Of a DNA stretch of 64,000 nucleotides, positions 32,378 through 38,431 are shown one piece after another. The DNA lies in contig CP070770.1 of the NCBI GenBank assembly GCA_020345765.1, positions 1,130,972 through 1,194,971 on the forward strand, in the 5' to 3' direction. The DNA comes from Deltaproteobacteria bacterium. GTDB taxonomy: Bacteria > Desulfobacterota > G020345765. Each line of letters begins with the position of its first letter. The first letter of the stretch is position 1. The position numbers and the translations under genes were made by a program. The notes under the pieces are model-generated. The model had not been told where the DNA came from. It searched no databases and saw nothing but the letters and a program-made list of their open reading frames with translations.

Positions 32378-33351
32378 TTCTCACCCACCTCAGTTACATA
32401 AAGTTTTTTTATCTCTGCTTCGGGTATGTTGCCCGCAGTCAATTCGCAGACCGAGCCCTCATTAATTTCGGAATCGCCGAACAAACTGACAACTCGCAAT
32501 GTTGCTATCTGTTTTGGAGGAAGCTCTATCGGAAAACCGGTTCTCTTACTATCAACAGTCTGACCTGGTTCCATAACCTGTAATACATCACCAACTTCTA
32601 ATCCTTGTCTTTCTCCCCCACTTATATATATTTGCTTGTCTTGTATCTCTAATATCTCCGTCCGCCAGGGGCGTTCTTCAAGGGTTGAAATTAACTTATC
32701 AATCATATCAGATATAGCCGCGGCTATGGCACGGTCATTTAAGGTTGCATCGTAAGCGGCATAGCTTCCAAATCCAGCGATTGCGCCCGATTCCGTACTT
32801 GCCTCCCCAGCACCAACTGCAGAGAAAAATGCATGTCCAGTATGTACATCCACGAGGCGAATGTCAACTTTAGCATGAGCCGATTGTACTTTCGTCTTAC
32901 TAAGAAATCCACGCTTGCCGCCTACTGATCTGCCAAACTCAGTAACAGACCCCACAATCAATACGTCAACTCCTATTAATTTTGAGTCACCGGCAAGATT
33001 TTGCTCACGCTCAATTTTTTTCAGGTCCGGTCGCTCAAAAACCAGGAATTTTCCAGATTTAATTAATCGACTAGCAAGCATGTCAGAGGCTTGTTTACCG
33101 ATGCGATCCAGGTCTTCGTCACTCATTAACGAACGTCCGTAGTTGGTCTCATTAGTGAACCTGGCAATAGCAATTTTTCGTTTATAACTTTTAGCTTCGG
33201 GAATGCTTAGCTCTTTTTGGGCTGCTATTTGTTCGGGTTTCGATACCGGGGCTTCAACTTCAACCGGTTTTTCCGAAACAGTTGCACATCCAGCAAGAAT
33301 TGCTAACGGCACGATGATTACTAACTTACAGTTTACCATTTTAGACCTCAT
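32374..33351 (-). CDS. CsgG/HfaB-family lipoprotein (curli-type secretion channel homologue) with C-terminal extension
   Basis: 325 aa. 'LAILAGC' lipobox. 'KIAIARFTNETNYGR...ASRLIKSGKFLVFERPDLKKIEREQ' CsgG core. About 90 extra C-terminal residues. Confidence 0.85.
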   Translation of the reverse strand: MRSKMVNCKLVIIVPLAILAGCATVSEKPVEVEAPVSKPEQIAAQKELSIPEAKSYKRKIAIARFTNETNYGRSLMSDEDLDRIGKQASDMLASRLIKSGKFLVFERPDLKKIEREQNLAGDSKLIGVDVLIVGSVTEFGRSVGGKRGFLSKTKVQSAHAKVDIRLVDVHTGHAFFSAVGAGEASTESGAIAGFGSYAAYDATLNDRAIAAAISDMIDKLISTLEERPWRTEILEIQDKQIYISGGERQGLEVGDVLQVMEPGQTVDSKRTGFPIELPPKQIATLRVVSLFGDSEINEGSVCELTAGNIPEAEIKKLYVTEVGEK

Positions 33352-33551
33352 AACATTTCAGATTTCTTAAGTTAAGAACGGTGGTGAGCTAATATAATCT
33401 CTAATTATTTTTAAACCAATATGGTCTGTCTGTCAAGCTATTTTGATGGGAAGAGATCCCGTACTATTAGAGGTATATATGGGGTAAGTAATTCAGACAA
33501 TCTTGCCGTTATGTATTATGTGGTTGAGTAAAGTTCCGACTTCTATTATCC

Positions 33552-33800
33552 TTAAATATGATCCGGTTTGTATCCATTCTCAGCCGGGCCGCCTAATTTT
33601 TCCATTGCTGCTTTGATGTATCTGCTTATCTCTTCCGAGAGTTGAATAACCTTCCTTAAATTCTCCGCTACCTCCTCAAGCCCGGCCTCCTCTACTTTCG
33701 CCAGCCATTTTCTGTCTTCTTCGATGTGTTCCCTGTTATGCTTAAGCCAATGGGACATTATTATCCTTAATCTCTTCAGGTCTTCCTCTGGGGTAGCCAT
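33552..33800 (-). CDS. hypothetical helical protein
   Basis: 82 aa. Its start abuts the stop of the upstream CooT-like gene. No family recognised. Confidence 0.55.
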   Translation of the reverse strand: MATPEEDLKRLRIIMSHWLKHNREHIEEDRKWLAKVEEAGLEEVAENLRKVIQLSEEISRYIKAAMEKLGGPAENGYKPDHI

Positions 33801-34001
33801 CTATTCATCCCCCCTGTTCCTCAGGACCAAAAAATTTTCGGTAAGATTGACCTCCTTGATGAAATAACCTTCCAACTCCTTCTCTTCGCCGAAGATCGTG
33901 TTAATCCTGATAGTTCCGTTATCGTCAATAACCTTGGCGACCTCTTCCGCCACAAGATCACTTTCGTCCCTTTTTTTCAGATATACCCTGGAGAGACACA
34001 T
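33801..34001 (-). CDS. CooT-like small nickel-binding protein
   Basis: 66 aa. Begins 'MC'. Size and the '...TIFGEE...G..IKEVNL' pattern match CooT of CO-dehydrogenase maturation. Confidence 0.62.
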   Translation of the reverse strand: MCLSRVYLKKRDESDLVAEEVAKVIDDNGTIRINTIFGEEKELEGYFIKEVNLTENFLVLRNRGDE

Positions 34002-34030
34002 TTTCGCCTCCTACTTCAAATGAATTGCCA

Positions 34031-34378
34031 TCATTTATATGCCGTAACTTTCTCCTCCACTGCCTTTTCCGGCATGGCGCCGATAATACCGTCCACGTTC
34101 TCCCCATTTTTAAAGATAAGCAGAGTGGGAATAGACCTGATCCCGAACCGAGCTGCAACATCCTGGCTTTCATCCACATTCAGCTTACCGAAGACGATCT
34201 CTCCTTTATACTTGTTGGCCAGTTTATCCACTATCGGAGCAATCATCCGGCAGGGAACACACCACTCGGCCCAGCAGTCAACCACTAGAAGAGGATATTT
34301 AGTCAGTGCCTGGTCGAAGCACTTACTGTCTAAACTAATCGGGCTATCCGGTTTGTCCAAAAGCTCTTTTGTTCCCAT
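34031..34378 (-). CDS. trxA: thioredoxin
   Basis: 115 aa. 'VVDCWAEWCVPCRMIAP' active site (CVPC variant), 'FGIRSIPTLLIFKNGE'. Confidence 0.9.
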   Translation of the reverse strand: MGTKELLDKPDSPISLDSKCFDQALTKYPLLVVDCWAEWCVPCRMIAPIVDKLANKYKGEIVFGKLNVDESQDVAARFGIRSIPTLLIFKNGENVDGIIGAMPEKAVEEKVTAYK

Positions 34379-34409
34379 GCTTTCCTCCTCTTCAAATAAT
34401 CACCTTATG

Positions 34410-34646
34410 TTACTGAAATACCTCAACATCACTTAGCTCAAGCAGCTTAATCCCCCCAGCCTGGTTCAGAGGGGTATAGATCTGAAAATGCCCTGATTCG
34501 AAGGACAGCCCCCGGAAGATCCCCAGGGAATCCAGGCAGAAACCGTCACTGAGTAAACCTATTAACCTACCTATTAATACACCTTGAGAGATGATATGTA
34601 AAGAGCTTATTCCGAGGCGGGAAGAATCTATCCTCTGTTCAAACAT
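34410..34646 (-). CDS. possible small hypothetical protein
   Basis: 78 aa from the ATG. It exactly fills the gap between the SPL-like gene and trx on the same strand, with aggaaaagg upstream. No recognisable motif. Confidence 0.3.
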   Translation of the reverse strand: MFEQRIDSSRLGISSLHIISQGVLIGRLIGLLSDGFCLDSLGIFRGLSFESGHFQIYTPLNQAGGIKLLELSDVEVFQ

Positions 34647-34667
34647 CAAACCTTTTCCTGGGATCAG

Positions 34668-35753
34668 CTATCCGAATAGAAAATCGAGGCTTCTTTCGGT
34701 ATCCGGGGTATACCCAAACACCCTCTCCCACACCTCTTTGGTTTCCATGCAGAGATAAACCGGGATCTTCGGACAGAAGCCCTTGATCCGATCAAGCAGT
34801 TTCCGGTAAGCCTCTACCCGGATGTGCTTGAGATAGCGCAGCTTCCCGTCGGCGCAAGGGACAAACTCGCCGCAGAGGATCTTGCTTCGGGGGAACCTTC
34901 TCCTGATAATCCGCTTCAGCAAGGGATAGTAGCGGAATCCTCCCAGGCTGATCCAGCTTACCCGGAGGGGGTCGACCACGGCAAATAGTTGATCGACAAC
35001 CCCCCGGTACTCTTTCTCCCAATCCGGGTAGATAATAATCGGGTCGAAATGAAAGCCCAATTGGTATCCGGCATCCTGACACCTCCGGGCGGCCTTCAAC
35101 CTCCGGGCAAGGGATGGGGTTTCTGCCTCGTCCTCGTCGATCACCCGTTGGGGACTGAGAGACCAGGAGACAATCACCCGGTCTCCGTGATCCAGTCCGA
35201 TAAGATTATCGACCAGATCGGTCTTGGTCTTCAGCTCCAGCACGGCATTTTTTTGCCGGGCAAAGAAGGGGACGATGTCTCTGGTGAACCCGGTAATGTT
35301 ATCGAGGACCAGGCTGTCGGCCAGCTCCCCGGTTCCGAGACGATAACTGCGCTCCCGGTTGGCATCCAAAAACCGTGTAATCTCATTTAACATATCCCCG
35401 GTATTGGCAAAAACCCTCATCAGGGGATTATTCTCCAGGTATCCCTGGAGAGCACAGTAGCTGCATTCCAGGGGACAGTTCGTGGCAGCATTGATTACAT
35501 AATAATTGCAGCAGATATGGATCTTGGTGCCCGGGCACTTTTTTACGAATGTGCCCGGGTGATTTGTTATCAGAAGTAGCTTCTTTCCGTCGCTAATGGG
35601 ATCCTGCGCTTTCGCTACCCTGCCCAACGCATCCTGAGGGTCTTCGATATATTCTACTGGCACCCCGGGAAGGTTCCCCAGGATCACCCGGGTCAGCTCC
35701 TTATCCTGCGCCTCTTTCTCGATAAAAATAGTCTCCGGACGATATTGTTCCAT
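34668..35753 (-). CDS. spore-photoproduct-lyase-family radical SAM enzyme
   Basis: 361 aa. 'KCPGTKIHICCNYYVINAATNCPLECSYCALQGY' matches the SplB-type architecture and carries a CxxxCxxC motif. Confidence 0.85.
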   Translation of the reverse strand: MEQYRPETIFIEKEAQDKELTRVILGNLPGVPVEYIEDPQDALGRVAKAQDPISDGKKLLLITNHPGTFVKKCPGTKIHICCNYYVINAATNCPLECSYCALQGYLENNPLMRVFANTGDMLNEITRFLDANRERSYRLGTGELADSLVLDNITGFTRDIVPFFARQKNAVLELKTKTDLVDNLIGLDHGDRVIVSWSLSPQRVIDEDEAETPSLARRLKAARRCQDAGYQLGFHFDPIIIYPDWEKEYRGVVDQLFAVVDPLRVSWISLGGFRYYPLLKRIIRRRFPRSKILCGEFVPCADGKLRYLKHIRVEAYRKLLDRIKGFCPKIPVYLCMETKEVWERVFGYTPDTERSLDFLFG

Positions 35754-35768
35754 AAATACTGACCTGAC

Positions 35769-36749
35769 TCAAATTATCTTCAAAATTTCTTTTATTTCCG
35801 GGGACTTAGAGAGTTCTAACAACCTCTCGGCCACCTTCTTAAGTTTCTTAGGATCACGGAATTGAAACTCTACCTTGAGCTCGTCCCCCTCAAAGTAGGG
35901 AGGGGGTGAAATCTTTAGCTCAGGAGGAAGATGCATTTGCTTTAATCCCTCCTCCACCTGTGCCTCAATCCCGGTCAACTGCGGATACCTCTTTTTTCTG
36001 AGGATATACCTGATTAACTCGACCTTCCTCGGCCGGGCGATCCCCTCATCATCGAGAACCGCCTCAATCTCACGATCACCAAGAAGTCCCTTAATCGGTA
36101 CCCCGTCCCGTTGCGAGGTCTCTTCCAGAAAATTAAGGAATTCCATTATCCGGTTCACGCCGAGATTCAGCCGGGAGATCAGCCGGAAGCTTGCCTGCCT
36201 GTCCTCCGGAGACAGTGTAAGTAACCGGGAGGGAACCCGAACCGGAAGATCCCTTTGGACGACATATTCCTTGATCTCCTCTTCCAGTTCAATCACTGGT
36301 AGATACTGGTGGAAAATTGCCTCCCCGGCCTCCAGGCCCAAAAGGGGGAGATACTCCCCGATAATCAGTGACTGGTCAAGACCAAATTGATTATGGAGCT
36401 TGCTTAAAACCATCGATCTCTCGATGTCGTTATAGTCACGGTGGCCCAGGTTTTCAAACAACCCCAACAAGAATCCCCCTTGATCACTGAGCTCCGCTTC
36501 GGGGTAAACCATGGCCTCGATTTTTTCAAAACCCAGCTCCCGGCAGGCCAATGCCCTCCGCAGGCCGCAGACTACCTGGTATTTTCCCGTTTTTTCCAGT
36601 TGCCGGACAATCAACGGCTGGATCAGGCCAATCCGGGCGATCGATTCCTTGATTCTCTCGCACTCAAGCGGATAGGTGGCGGAAAAGATCCTGTCTTCGA
36701 AATCGATCCTCTCGGTTTCCACCTTTTCCGGGTTTCTTCTCTTTAGCAT
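35769..36749 (-). CDS. ParB/Srx N-terminal-domain protein
   Basis: 326 aa. 'GLIQPLIVRQ...YQVVCGLRRALACRELG' ParB box. Uncharacterised helical C-terminal half. Confidence 0.8.
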   Translation of the reverse strand: MLKRRNPEKVETERIDFEDRIFSATYPLECERIKESIARIGLIQPLIVRQLEKTGKYQVVCGLRRALACRELGFEKIEAMVYPEAELSDQGGFLLGLFENLGHRDYNDIERSMVLSKLHNQFGLDQSLIIGEYLPLLGLEAGEAIFHQYLPVIELEEEIKEYVVQRDLPVRVPSRLLTLSPEDRQASFRLISRLNLGVNRIMEFLNFLEETSQRDGVPIKGLLGDREIEAVLDDEGIARPRKVELIRYILRKKRYPQLTGIEAQVEEGLKQMHLPPELKISPPPYFEGDELKVEFQFRDPKKLKKVAERLLELSKSPEIKEILKII

Positions 36750-36755
36750 AACCTC

Positions 36756-37586
36756 CTAATCCCCCTCGTATTTAAGCGGTAGTTCGGCAAACCGTTCCCC
36801 TTCCTCTTTTTTACCCCTGCGGTAGCAGCCCCGGGCAAGTATCTCGCACTTTTTCCTTAATACCCTTAATGTCTGCTCTTTTTGTTCCGCAGTCAGCTTG
36901 CCGTCATCCAGCAACTTCTCCAGGGCCCTCACCCGGAAGCGGTCCCTCCCCCAATATTTTTCGGAAAGCTGGTCAGGATGTCCCCCCCGCTTTATAATCA
37001 GCGGTTTATCGATCAGGCATACCGGTGTGGTGGAAGCGATTCGGAGCCAGAGGTCATAGTCCTCACAGACCGGCAGCTCTTCGTCGAAATCCCCGACCTC
37101 CCGGAGAAGCTCTTTCCGGATCATGACCGAAGAAGGGCTGATCGTGCAAAGCTCCAGTGCCCGCGCGAAGACCCAGCCCGAGTCCTTGCGGTGCTTCTTG
37201 CCGGGATTCACCCTGACTCCCCGGCGGATCCAGATCTCGTTGGTATAGCAGATCCGGGTTTCCGGATTGCTCTCCATGAAATCAACCTGACAGCGAAGCT
37301 TCTCTTTATCCCAGAGGTCATCCGAGTCCAGAAAGGTTATCAGCTCTGCCCGGGACAGTCTGATCCCCCGGTTCCGGGCCGCCGAGGCCCCCTTATTCTT
37401 CTGATAGAAGTAACGGAGCCGATCCGGGTATCGCCGGGCAATCCCGGCGGTATCATCCTCGGAACCGTCATCGACCACGATCAGCTCAAAATCCCGGTAG
37501 CTCTGGTTAAGAACCGATTCCACCGCCTCAATTAAGAAATGATACCGGTTATATGTCGGGATGATAACACTGACCCTGGGGACCAT
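36756..37586 (-). CDS. glycosyltransferase family 2
   Basis: 276 aa. 'VSVIIPTYNR...ELIVVDDGSEDDT...FLDSDD' GT-A signatures. Confidence 0.9.
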   Translation of the reverse strand: MVPRVSVIIPTYNRYHFLIEAVESVLNQSYRDFELIVVDDGSEDDTAGIARRYPDRLRYFYQKNKGASAARNRGIRLSRAELITFLDSDDLWDKEKLRCQVDFMESNPETRICYTNEIWIRRGVRVNPGKKHRKDSGWVFARALELCTISPSSVMIRKELLREVGDFDEELPVCEDYDLWLRIASTTPVCLIDKPLIIKRGGHPDQLSEKYWGRDRFRVRALEKLLDDGKLTAEQKEQTLRVLRKKCEILARGCYRRGKKEEGERFAELPLKYEGD

Positions 37587-37660
37587 GACAGGCTCTCCAC
37601 GAAATACAGTGGATAGATAGAATTCATCTACAATATTATCATTGTCATAGGAAGGTGAGC

Positions 37661-37920
37661 TAATGTCAAATACTAAAGCTCAAAGTTCAAACAAAGTCTA
37701 AAGTTCAAATGACAAAATTTATAAATAAATCCTAAGCACTAAATCCTAAATACAAAACATTCCTTTCTACTTCGCTCAAGACAGGGTTTTGAACATTTAA
37801 CATTAGGATTTGGGATTTGTTTGGGATTTAGGATTTGGAATTTAGTATTTCTCAGTTGATATTTGGCATTTAGTCATTTTTCATTCATTTGTAATTTGGA
37901 TTTTGACATTTGGATTTAAT
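37661..37920. repeat. AT-rich long imperfect hairpin element (largest copy)
   Basis: aatgtcaaa...aaagttcaaatga...aaatcctaagcactaaatcctaaat pairs with atttaggatttgg...tttgacatttggattt. The arms are built from ~7-8-nt GGATTTn/nAAATCC units. Confidence 0.72.
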
Positions 37921-38047
37921 TGTTTACCTACAACAATTCGGGATGAGCCTCATAACATTTTAGCCCAATAATTTATGGAATAATAAACTAAGGGGGGTAG
38001 GCAAGCCTTTTGTGAAGAATGCATAAGAAGGAGGCCGGGATAAAATG

Positions 38048-38431
38048 CTATCTTTGTTCCTCAACAAACCTTTCGTATTCTCCGAGGTCTAAAAGAGAAT
38101 CGAGCTCACCTGGCTTAGTCAGCTCAACCTCAATCAGCCAGCCCTCACCGTAAGGGTCATCGTTAACGATCGAAGGGTTAGTTTCCAGTTCCTCGTTGAC
38201 CCCGATAATAGTACCGCTTACCGGTGCGATTATCTCCGAAACGGTTTTGGATGATTCAACCTCCCCAAACGGCTCGTCTTTCTCTATCGTATCTCCTACT
38301 ATCGGGAGATCAATAAATAGAATTTCTCCCAGCTCCGACTGGGCATAATCGCTAATACCTATCTTACCTTTTTTCGCACTTACTTTGACCCAAATATGAT
38401 CTTCGTTGAATTTCAGATCCTCGGACTCCAT
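38048..38431 (-). CDS. gcvH: glycine cleavage system protein H
   Basis: 127 aa. 'FGEVESSKTVSEIIAPVSG' lipoyl-lysine motif. Confidence 0.93.
   Translation of the reverse strand: MESEDLKFNEDHIWVKVSAKKGKIGISDYAQSELGEILFIDLPIVGDTIEKDEPFGEVESSKTVSEIIAPVSGTIIGVNEELETNPSIVNDDPYGEGWLIEVELTKPGELDSLLDLGEYERFVEEQR

Follow-up and report, generated by a model that had tools for sequence, protein, structure and literature searches.

Among phage thymine dioxygenases, ParB-dependent and ParB-independent subclasses have been demonstrated experimentally (PMC13229309, PNAS 2026). A ParB-like protein activates the thymine dioxygenase and is needed on double-stranded DNA, with mutations in its nucleoside triphosphate (NTP) site having little effect, and the commonest neighbours of these phage enzymes are glycosyltransferases (GTs, 31 %) and ParB proteins (27 %; PMC13229309). 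DNA thymines are also the target of spore photoproduct lyase (SPL), the only characterised member of its radical S-adenosylmethionine (SAM) family, which proceeds via a thymine allylic radical and is structurally close to the pyruvate formate-lyase (PFL)-activating enzyme (PMC3467042). SplB-like radical SAM genes have furthermore been described in other bacterial repair neighbourhoods, together with DUF4130/UDG and ImuB-C (PMC3765255), while the main text of a 2025 survey of the ParB fold mentions neither radical SAM nor GT partners (PMC12704722). Here, we describe a locus in which proteins of these kinds are encoded side by side. It lies in a stretch of 64,000 nucleotides (the window) from a Deltaproteobacteria bacterium of the phylum Desulfobacterota (assembly GCA_020345765.1, contig CP070770.1, positions 1,130,972 to 1,194,971) and comprises the genes for a family-2 glycosyltransferase (GT2), a ParB-like partner protein and an SPL-like radical SAM enzyme, in the following referred to as the trio. 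The partner protein combines a nucleotide-binding N-terminal domain (NBD) of the ParB/sulfiredoxin (Srx) type and a helix-turn-helix (HTH)-like middle domain with a C-terminal domain that we call the X domain. A preliminary description of the locus, made from the sequence alone, knew of no described system of this composition, and our literature searches likewise found none: in the library searched, no paper links SPL or SplB to ParB, and none brings ParB, radical SAM, glycosyltransferase, and DNA modification together.

Co-Inheritance and Gene Order

The trio is one conserved chromosomal functional unit that is gained and lost together across lineages. Upon scoring 301 genomes of the phylum for the SPL-like gene and the GT2 orthologue, the former was found in 180 (approximately 60 %) and the latter in 166. 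Both genes were present in 162 genomes and both missing from 117, with 18 genomes carrying the SPL-like gene only and four the GT2 gene only (Fisher test 6e-58, uncorrected for phylogeny), and the SPL-like gene is single-copy in nearly all genomes that carry one. The same picture emerges from a sample of 40 families of the phylum, each represented by one genome, in which full-length ParB-like homologues occur in 19 genomes and GT2 orthologues (E <= 1e-55, 48–60 % identity, whole-length alignment) in exactly the same 19. The SPL-like orthologue is found in 17 of these and nowhere else in the sample; in one of the two remaining cases the contig breaks off at the gene, and in the other the genome is 79 % complete. 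Co-occurrence even persists without linkage, for example in G039, where the GT2 gene (1.108 Mb) is about 1 Mb distant from the SPL-like gene (0.144 Mb), or in three further genomes (G010, G014, and G025) in which the trio genes reside on separate contigs.

Physical linkage was assessed in 40 loci from different families, each centred on the SPL-like gene. A gene for an X or ParB-X protein adjoins the SPL-like gene in 25 of them, often overlapping its start, and the GT2 gene is adjacent in ten. Whenever all three genes stand together, they follow the order GT2, partner, SPL-like on one strand, and contigs from beyond the phylum, with the labels Binatia, Udaeobacter, Schekmanbacteria, and “Pseudomonadota”, show this order as well; KSB3 contigs carry the pair of partner and SPL-like gene. 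A search of genome contigs with a single-sequence query found only the congener. The linkage of the trio is far beyond chance and is kept in many lineages, so that the possibility raised at the outset, namely that the arrangement might be confined to this one genome, can be set aside.

Many of the 18 genomes with the SPL-like gene only are fragmented assemblies. Seven stem from a single family (f45), in which seven of the eight sampled genomes (G045, G082, G116, G149, G210, G240, and G296) possess the SPL-like gene and no GT2 orthologue at E <= 1e-60. This family may represent a natural GT2-less version of the system.

The Partner Protein

The preliminary description had assigned a ParB/Srx-type N-domain to the 326-aa partner protein. 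This domain is indeed present; the part that is conserved within the trio, however, is the X domain, many lineages having no ParB portion at all. Stand-alone proteins of 141–144 aa, encoded between the GT2 and SPL-like genes in contigs labelled Binatia and Udaeobacter, align with the X domain, and since they match only residues 194–326 of the window protein (BLASTP 1e-18 and 2e-21), we regard the C-terminal domain as the conserved partner. X-only proteins are present in at least seven of the 40 sampled families as well as in Binatia. Judged from these architectures, the ParB NBD and HTH together constitute an optional N-terminal fusion to the X domain, albeit one that makes up the majority architecture of X-domain proteins. 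A profile of the X domain retrieved 4144 representatives (at 50 % identity) among 1.84 billion, 2861 of these at E <= 1e-10, and its top 150 matches fall into two length classes of about 320 aa and about 140–195 aa; in none of these 150 is the X domain joined to a domain of the radical SAM or GT2 type.

The X domain has no match in Pfam, NCBIfam, PHROG, or PADLOC. Structure prediction, as suggested earlier for the C-terminal half of the protein, returned a model with no named fold or family match: modelled alone, the domain attains a predicted local distance difference test score (pLDDT) of 88 and consists of five helices followed by a beta-beta-alpha-alpha arrangement, and Foldseek retrieved nothing significant from the PDB (best E 0.9) or among the viral folds of BFVD (best E 0.6). 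Near-invariant residues are P256 within an RYP motif and F286-E287 within an FEG motif; compared with canonical ParB, the X domain is made up of a helical insert of about 90 residues and this FEG motif. The last approximately 50 residues follow the canonical pattern of a ParB C-terminal domain (CTD), that is, a helix, a “KVxI” strand, a glycine turn, an “IEIEFxS” strand, and an “EELERI” helix. hhalign places the C-terminus of X in the ParB CTD register against both the genome's own ParB and a 21-sequence ParB profile, with E values of 0.03–0.08 and a probability below 2 %. The resemblance of the C-terminal beta-beta-alpha unit to the ParB dimerisation domain is suggestive only.

As for the N-terminal portion, the AlphaFold2 model of the entire partner protein, which is confident (pLDDT 92.8), matched only N-terminal and DNA-binding domains of ParB, Noc, and KorB in Foldseek (E about 1e-8), and residues 106–194 or so align to the domain that binds DNA in Noc and ParB structures. 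In the NBD, G62 and R65 of the GxxR motif are 100 % conserved, N100 87 %, and R104 95 %. The glutamine of the QP motif (Q44 here) is variable in the family, with Asn in 37 %, and the glutamate of the GERR motif corresponds to L63 in the window protein and to Phe in most members. The protein scores below the cut-offs for ParB (TIGR00180, 51.1 vs. 58.45) and Noc (TIGR04285, 64.6 vs. 315), and Pfam ParB_N alone passes (44 vs. 26.3). Its gene has no parA neighbour, being flanked by the GT2 and radical SAM genes instead.

A canonical ParB that has GERR/ENIQR motifs is encoded elsewhere in the genome, and one canonical parS site (TGTTTCACGTGAAACA) was found, at position 2293837 of contig C1. No repeated palindrome that could act as a ParB loading site is present near the operon. 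Elsewhere in the 3.4-Mb genome, the 18-bp perfect palindrome TCCCGCGTTAACGCGGGA occurs three times outside the window (C1:1036551, C1:1395950, and C1:3311329) and is the only perfect palindrome of at least 16 bp that is found at least three times. A third ParB_N protein, likewise encoded outside the window (C1:285698–286471), has 257 aa, carries a GFRR motif, and is very acidic and rich in glutamate in its C-terminal half; it is distinct from both the canonical ParB and the X-domain protein.

The SPL-Like Radical SAM Enzyme

The radical SAM enzyme had been described as SplB-type, which holds for the broad family and not for SPL in the strict sense. Its match to PF20903 (Table 1) lies far above the gathering threshold of 27 bits, and the family profile aligns with the SPL of G. 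thermodenitrificans (4FHC) at E 5e-42 over residues 4–296. The strict SPL equivalog TIGR04070, however, gives 134.4 bits against a cut-off of 400, and the window enzyme is therefore not a true SPL. With more than 2500 clusters at 90 % identity, the SPL-like family is sizeable. Apparent fusions of the SPL-like gene in long frames (524–806 aa) were dismissed as spurious N-terminal extensions in high-GC sequence.

A residue-by-residue comparison with SPL, proposed along with the initial assignment, gave a divided outcome. The SPL residues named in PMC3467042 were mapped by HMMER alignments and counted in 57 orthologues. Those binding the cluster and SAM are kept, as is Y96: the cysteines C90/C94/C97 correspond to C93/C97/C100 and Y96 to Y99 (100 % each), and the SAM ligands K174/S195/R273 to K177/S198/R274 (93–100 %). 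By contrast, the H-atom donor C140 is replaced by E143 (98 % Glu) and Y98 by A101 (mostly Ile in the family), while A234 has become D237 within an HFDP motif (100 %). Additional cysteines stand out as well, with C73, C82, and C335 at least 96 % and C81 89 % conserved. The corresponding CPGT...CCGY segment adjoins the position of the alternative donor Cys77 of Clostridium SPL, C81/C82 following about 3–6 residues after it, so that they may provide a cysteine close to this site. Furthermore, a conserved DGKxRY motif (D302, K304, R306, and Y307) is situated in the region of the SPL base-flipping hairpin (R304/Y305, K309), although the HMMER alignments end at residue 296 and the C-terminal piece, searched alone, gave no match. 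Taken as a sequence pattern, these residues point to a SAM chemistry of the SPL kind in combination with a substrate pocket that differs and with an auxiliary Fe-S cluster or else a thiol in the active site.

The Glycosyltransferase

The assignment as a family-2 glycosyltransferase was corroborated by Pfam (PF00535), and by its motifs the protein is a typical inverting GT-A enzyme, the DxD (D87/D89/D90) and ED (E175/D176) motifs being at least 95 % conserved. It shares 48–61 % identity with orthologues across the phylum and 56 % with the Binatia orthologue; at E <= 1e-60, it is matched by at least 7656 clusters (90 % identity). The orthologues are consistently basic, with a median isoelectric point (pI) of 8.9. 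The closest solved relatives are K4CP, TarP, and SpsA, that is, UDP-sugar transferases of polysaccharides and teichoic acids. None of the NCBIfam GT2 equivalogs (TuaG, EpsD, MftF, WcaA, PgaC, the arsenosugar GT, and others) reaches its cut-off, the scores being 102.9 vs. 400 for TuaG as the best, 72.5 vs. 280 for MftF, and 64.6 vs. 182 for TIGR04283. Transmembrane segments were not predicted in any of the three trio proteins, all of which are soluble, and this argues against a membrane-associated cell-wall glycosyltransferase. A characterised polysaccharide or cofactor pathway, which had been named as a possible competing assignment, was not encountered for any trio protein: the NCBIfam equivalogs all remain far below cut-off, and PADLOC and the literature returned nothing.

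Layout and Genomic Context

The arrangement of three minus-strand genes with intervals of 6 and 15 nt, as originally reported, agrees with the list of open reading frames (ORFs), and both peptide strings quoted at the time, VVCGLRRALACRELG and NCPLECSYCALQGY, are present in the translations. The features are compiled in Table 1.

Table 1. Features of the trio and its downstream neighbours (window coordinates).
Feature	Position	Strand	Description	Support
GT2	36756–37586	-	276 aa; first gene of the trio	PF00535, 125.8 bits
ParB-like partner protein	35769–36749	-	326 aa	PF02195 ParB_N, 44 bits, residues 31–101 only
SPL-family radical SAM enzyme	34668–35753	-	361 aa	PF20903, 119.8 bits
ParB/Srx-type NBD of partner	36435..36749	-	residues ~1–105 of the 326-aa protein	
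Helical middle (HTH-like) domain of partner	36168..36434	-	residues ~106–194	
X domain of partner	35769..36167	-	residues ~195–326	
Radical SAM cluster motif	35454..35477	-	C93-x3-C97-x2-C100	invariant in 57 orthologues
Candidate sigma-70-like promoter	37641..37669	-	TTGACA-17-GACAAT	consensus scan only
Kinase-gene remnant	34410–34649	-		
Thioredoxin	34031–34378	-		
CooT-like protein	33801–34001	-		
82-aa protein	33552–33800	-		

In a consensus scan, a sigma-70-like candidate was detected some 55 nt upstream of the start codon of the GT2 gene, and no minus-strand terminator-like sites came up within 33300–38100. The interval that separates gcvH from the GT2 gene contains an imperfect, AT-rich hairpin element (37660–37921) of about 260 nt, composed of GGATTT/AAATCC-like units. 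As the congener has only 93 nt at this place, the element is considered an insertion, and it looks like a miniature inverted-repeat transposable element (MITE). The best promoter-like site for the trio overlaps the edge of this inserted element.

Downstream, the co-directional string of genes noted previously is real (successive gaps of 18, 31, 29, and 0 nt), and the genes at 33552..34649 are probably co-transcribed with the trio here. As an extension of the trio, this string is nevertheless lineage-specific: homologues of the thioredoxin, CooT, and 82-aa genes are kept beside the trio in the same genus only and were not found there in 19 other families, and they were rejected as part of the module. 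The ORF at 34410–34649 (79 aa, 78 aa from its ATG), which had been listed as a possible 78-aa ORF, proved to be a deletion remnant. In the congener, an intact gene for a 354-aa P-loop protein of the Clp1_P type (polynucleotide-kinase-like; L080, 8109–9173) is located between the SPL-like and thioredoxin genes, and in the window residues 1–10 of this kinase are joined in frame to residues 285–354, about 840 nt being missing. No other copy of a Clp1_P-type kinase is present in the window's genome. The kinase was also considered as a fourth component and discarded, given that it occurs mostly in trio-less genomes and is absent from most trio genomes of the 40-family sample.

Generally, the trio resides in the chromosome among housekeeping genes. 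Its neighbours in 65 loci include purC (six), SecA (five), MiaB-like (five), NifU-like (four), and short-chain dehydrogenase/reductase (SDR, three) genes, and in one contig a PNP_UDP_1 nucleosidase gene stands beside it. Beyond the trio itself, no gene recurs in these 65 loci, be it for a precursor peptide, peptidase, transporter, biosynthetic enzyme, or dioxygenase. The defence models of PADLOC-DB 2.0 gave no match for the GT2, the ParB-X protein, the SPL-like enzyme, or the stand-alone X protein, and a family-alignment scan of IMG/VR viral contigs revealed no relatives of the trio clade.

In a tblastn search of a phage collection, a distant SPL-like gene appeared in two GenBank records titled “UNVERIFIED: Bacteriophage sp.” (MT835514.1 and MT835770.1). 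It is surrounded by cation-efflux, sulfate-permease, SDR, and PNP_UDP_1-like genes, its immediate neighbours being the SDR reductase and the nucleosidase-like gene and not X or GT2. With their transporter genes, both records look bacterial; their small ORFs are not X-like and IMG/VR is devoid of relatives, and a phage link for the trio was rejected.

Possible Functions of the Trio

With respect to the earlier proposal of a nucleic-acid repair or modification module, the trio has turned out to be a genuine conserved unit and the soluble nature of its proteins argues against cell-wall biosynthesis by the GT, whereas the nucleic-acid target itself stays a matter of conjecture. We tentatively favour a reading in which the trio performs a ParB-assisted, radical-SAM-initiated DNA base modification that is completed by glycosylation. 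Bound to DNA, the ParB-like/X protein would act as adaptor or activator and deliver or open the double strand for the radical SAM enzyme, which would abstract a hydrogen atom from a pyrimidine, most simply from the C5-methyl group of thymine, the resulting radical being an SPL intermediate. Assisted by the extra cysteines, either as ligands of an auxiliary Fe-S cluster or as a thiol, this could yield a functionalised base such as a hydroxymethyl-pyrimidine, onto which the basic, soluble GT2 would then move a sugar from a UDP-sugar. The trio might thereby constitute an oxygen-independent cellular counterpart of the phage cassettes of 5-methylpyrimidine dioxygenase, ParB, and glycosyltransferase. 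Our leaning towards DNA stems from the fusion of the partner to a ParB NBD and HTH in most members, from the DNA thymine substrate of the only characterised SPL-family enzyme combined with the retention of the SAM-binding residues, from the activation of phage thymine dioxygenase on double-stranded DNA by a ParB-like protein (PMC13229309), and from the consistently basic and soluble character of the GT2 orthologues. That new chemistry rather than SPL repair would be involved is suggested by the substitutions C140 to E143, Y98 to Ala or Ile, and A234 to D237 together with the conserved C73, C82, and C335.

Several observations weigh against DNA as the target. The ParB NBD and HTH are dispensable, considering the X-only forms in at least seven of 40 families and in Binatia, and the canonical residues of ParB for CTP hydrolysis (Gln of QP and Glu of GERR) do not appear to be conserved; family f45 mostly has the SPL-like gene without a GT2 orthologue; and the trio, as a single-copy chromosomal set amid housekeeping genes that occurs in about 60 % of the phylum and is missing from IMG/VR and PADLOC, is unlike known DNA hypermodification systems. 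The active-site substitutions are mostly acidic (E143, D146, E209, D237, and D302) and would by themselves provide no pointer to DNA binding. Some of these features would suit a non-DNA target, a possible if somewhat unlikely alternative in which the radical SAM enzyme and the GT2 synthesise or alter a small molecule or cofactor bearing a sugar, a base in RNA, or a lipid-free metabolite, X acts as carrier or chaperone for the substrate or enzyme, and the fused ParB NBD and HTH form a ligand-responsive DNA-binding regulator akin to KorB. The optional nature of the ParB part, the acidic active site, and the housekeeping-like, vertical distribution with no signal of mobile genetic elements, phages, or defence are all in line with this, as are the very high conservation of the GT2 between phyla (identity of about 55 %), as is usual in primary or cofactor metabolism, and the occasional NifU-like, SDR, and PNP_UDP_1 neighbours. 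A cooperation of a radical SAM enzyme, a nucleosidase, and a GT2 is moreover familiar from hopanoid side-chain synthesis (HpnH/HpnG/HpnI). A metabolite pathway is, however, difficult to reconcile with the lack of a recurrent precursor peptide, peptidase, transporter, or further biosynthetic gene near the trio and with the failure of the GT2 to meet any equivalog, including MftF and the arsenosugar GT; in addition, a ParB NBD and HTH fusion in the majority of members would be odd for a simple metabolite sensor, and DNA is the sole known substrate of the SPL family.

Direct DNA repair, in which the SPL-like enzyme of these non-sporulating bacteria would undo a lesion of the thymine-dimer type, or a related one amenable to radical repair, while a ParB-like clamp scans the DNA and presents the lesion, with the GT2 only loosely related, strikes us as rather improbable. 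Such a role could draw on the nearly full-length SPL-family match, the retained SAM-binding residues and Y96 (Y99 here), the chromosomal and vertical distribution as known for repair genes, and the occurrence of SplB-like radical SAM genes in other repair neighbourhoods (PMC3765255). The loss of the H-donor Cys140 to Glu and of Tyr98 and the score of 134 vs. 400 bits for TIGR04070 speak against it, and the strict co-occurrence with a dedicated GT2 has no role in lesion reversal. Spore photoproduct, furthermore, arises in the dehydrated A-form DNA of spores and is not expected in the trio hosts. More improbable still is that the X protein itself is the substrate, its invariant FEG loop being modified at a residue by the radical SAM enzyme (as activases do with their partner proteins) and subsequently glycosylated by the GT2 to give a modified DNA-binding or regulatory protein. 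The adjacent and often overlapping X and SPL-like genes, the nearly invariant E287 in an otherwise poorly conserved domain, and the structural proximity of SPL to the PFL-activating enzyme (PMC3467042) would fit such a scheme. Against this, the X domain contains no glycyl-radical-type motif, G288 is only 63 % conserved, and at 25–30 % the conservation of X is low compared to that of the enzymes (45–55 %). We also know of no precedent for a scheme of this type.

Returning to DNA base modification, a more specific version, which we consider doubtful, would have many bacteria, most of them anaerobes, label the DNA of their own chromosomes with a glycosylated hydroxymethyl-pyrimidine that resembles base J and is made without oxygen. 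Here, the SPL-like enzyme would abstract hydrogen from the methyl group of thymine or 5-methylcytosine, oxidation of the radical by an auxiliary Fe-S cluster with C73/C82/C335 as ligands would allow the addition of water, and a sugar would be attached to the product by the GT2, with the X-domain/ParB protein as a DNA-loaded activator deciding where the modification takes place. If true, both the enzymatic route to hydroxymethyl-pyrimidines and the epigenetic mark in bacteria would be new. The broader reading of a DNA base modification would, if correct, imply oxygen-independent functionalisation and glycosylation of DNA bases as well as a second, independent instance in which a ParB-type protein has been recruited to activate an enzyme, and it would place such chemistry in cells instead of viruses. 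Should the target be something other than DNA, a strictly co-inherited set of this size, with radical SAM enzyme, adaptor, and GT2, still marks an unknown part of core metabolism in anaerobes. In either case, the module is large, old, and unnamed, its X domain, SPL branch, and GT2 orthologue group having neither name nor tested function.

Comparison with Known Systems

Individually, the components of the trio can be traced to well-described relatives. With SplB (TIGR04070; structures 4FHC–4FHG; PMC3467042), the window enzyme has in common the Pfam family, the CxxxCxxC motif, Y96, and the SAM-binding residues, but it differs in its obligate X-domain partner, the co-inherited GT2, and three extra cysteines, and its hosts are non-sporulating, mostly uncultured lineages. 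Similarly, the partner protein resembles canonical ParB/Spo0J and Noc (PDB 7NFU, 7OL9, and 6SDK) in the folds of NBD and HTH and in the GxxR and N...R motifs, whereas the missing parA neighbour, the scores below cut-off, the added X domain, and the non-conserved catalytic Gln and Glu set it apart.

At the level of the whole system, mycofactocin biosynthesis (MftC, MftB, and the GT2 MftF; PMC3023750) is reminiscent of the trio in its combination of a radical SAM enzyme, a small dedicated partner, and a family-2 GT. The trio, however, comes without SPASM domain, precursor peptide, or peptidase, its partner is fused to ParB domains and is not a PqqD-like RiPP recognition element (RRE), and its GT2 scores 72.5 bits against the MftF cut-off of 280. 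The three-part logic of the phage cassettes consisting of a 5-methylpyrimidine dioxygenase (5mYOX/TET-JBP) that attacks the C5-methyl group of the base in DNA, a ParB-like activator with no part in segregation, and a GT (PMC13229309) also resembles that of the trio, ParB-containing and ParB-free variants being known in both; in both, too, the canonical residues for NTP hydrolysis by ParB appear to be dispensable or lack conservation. In contrast to these cassettes, the enzyme of the trio is a radical SAM protein and not an Fe(II)/2-oxoglutarate dioxygenase, and its ParB-like protein keeps the HTH and carries the X domain. The trio is furthermore chromosomal, widespread, and vertically inherited, occurring neither in phages nor beside terminase genes, and a DNA substrate is only inferred in its case. 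Summed up, the parts of the trio derive from known superfamilies and its logic resembles that of known systems, whereas its SPL branch, X domain, and GT2 group, like the association between them, are undescribed and very widespread.

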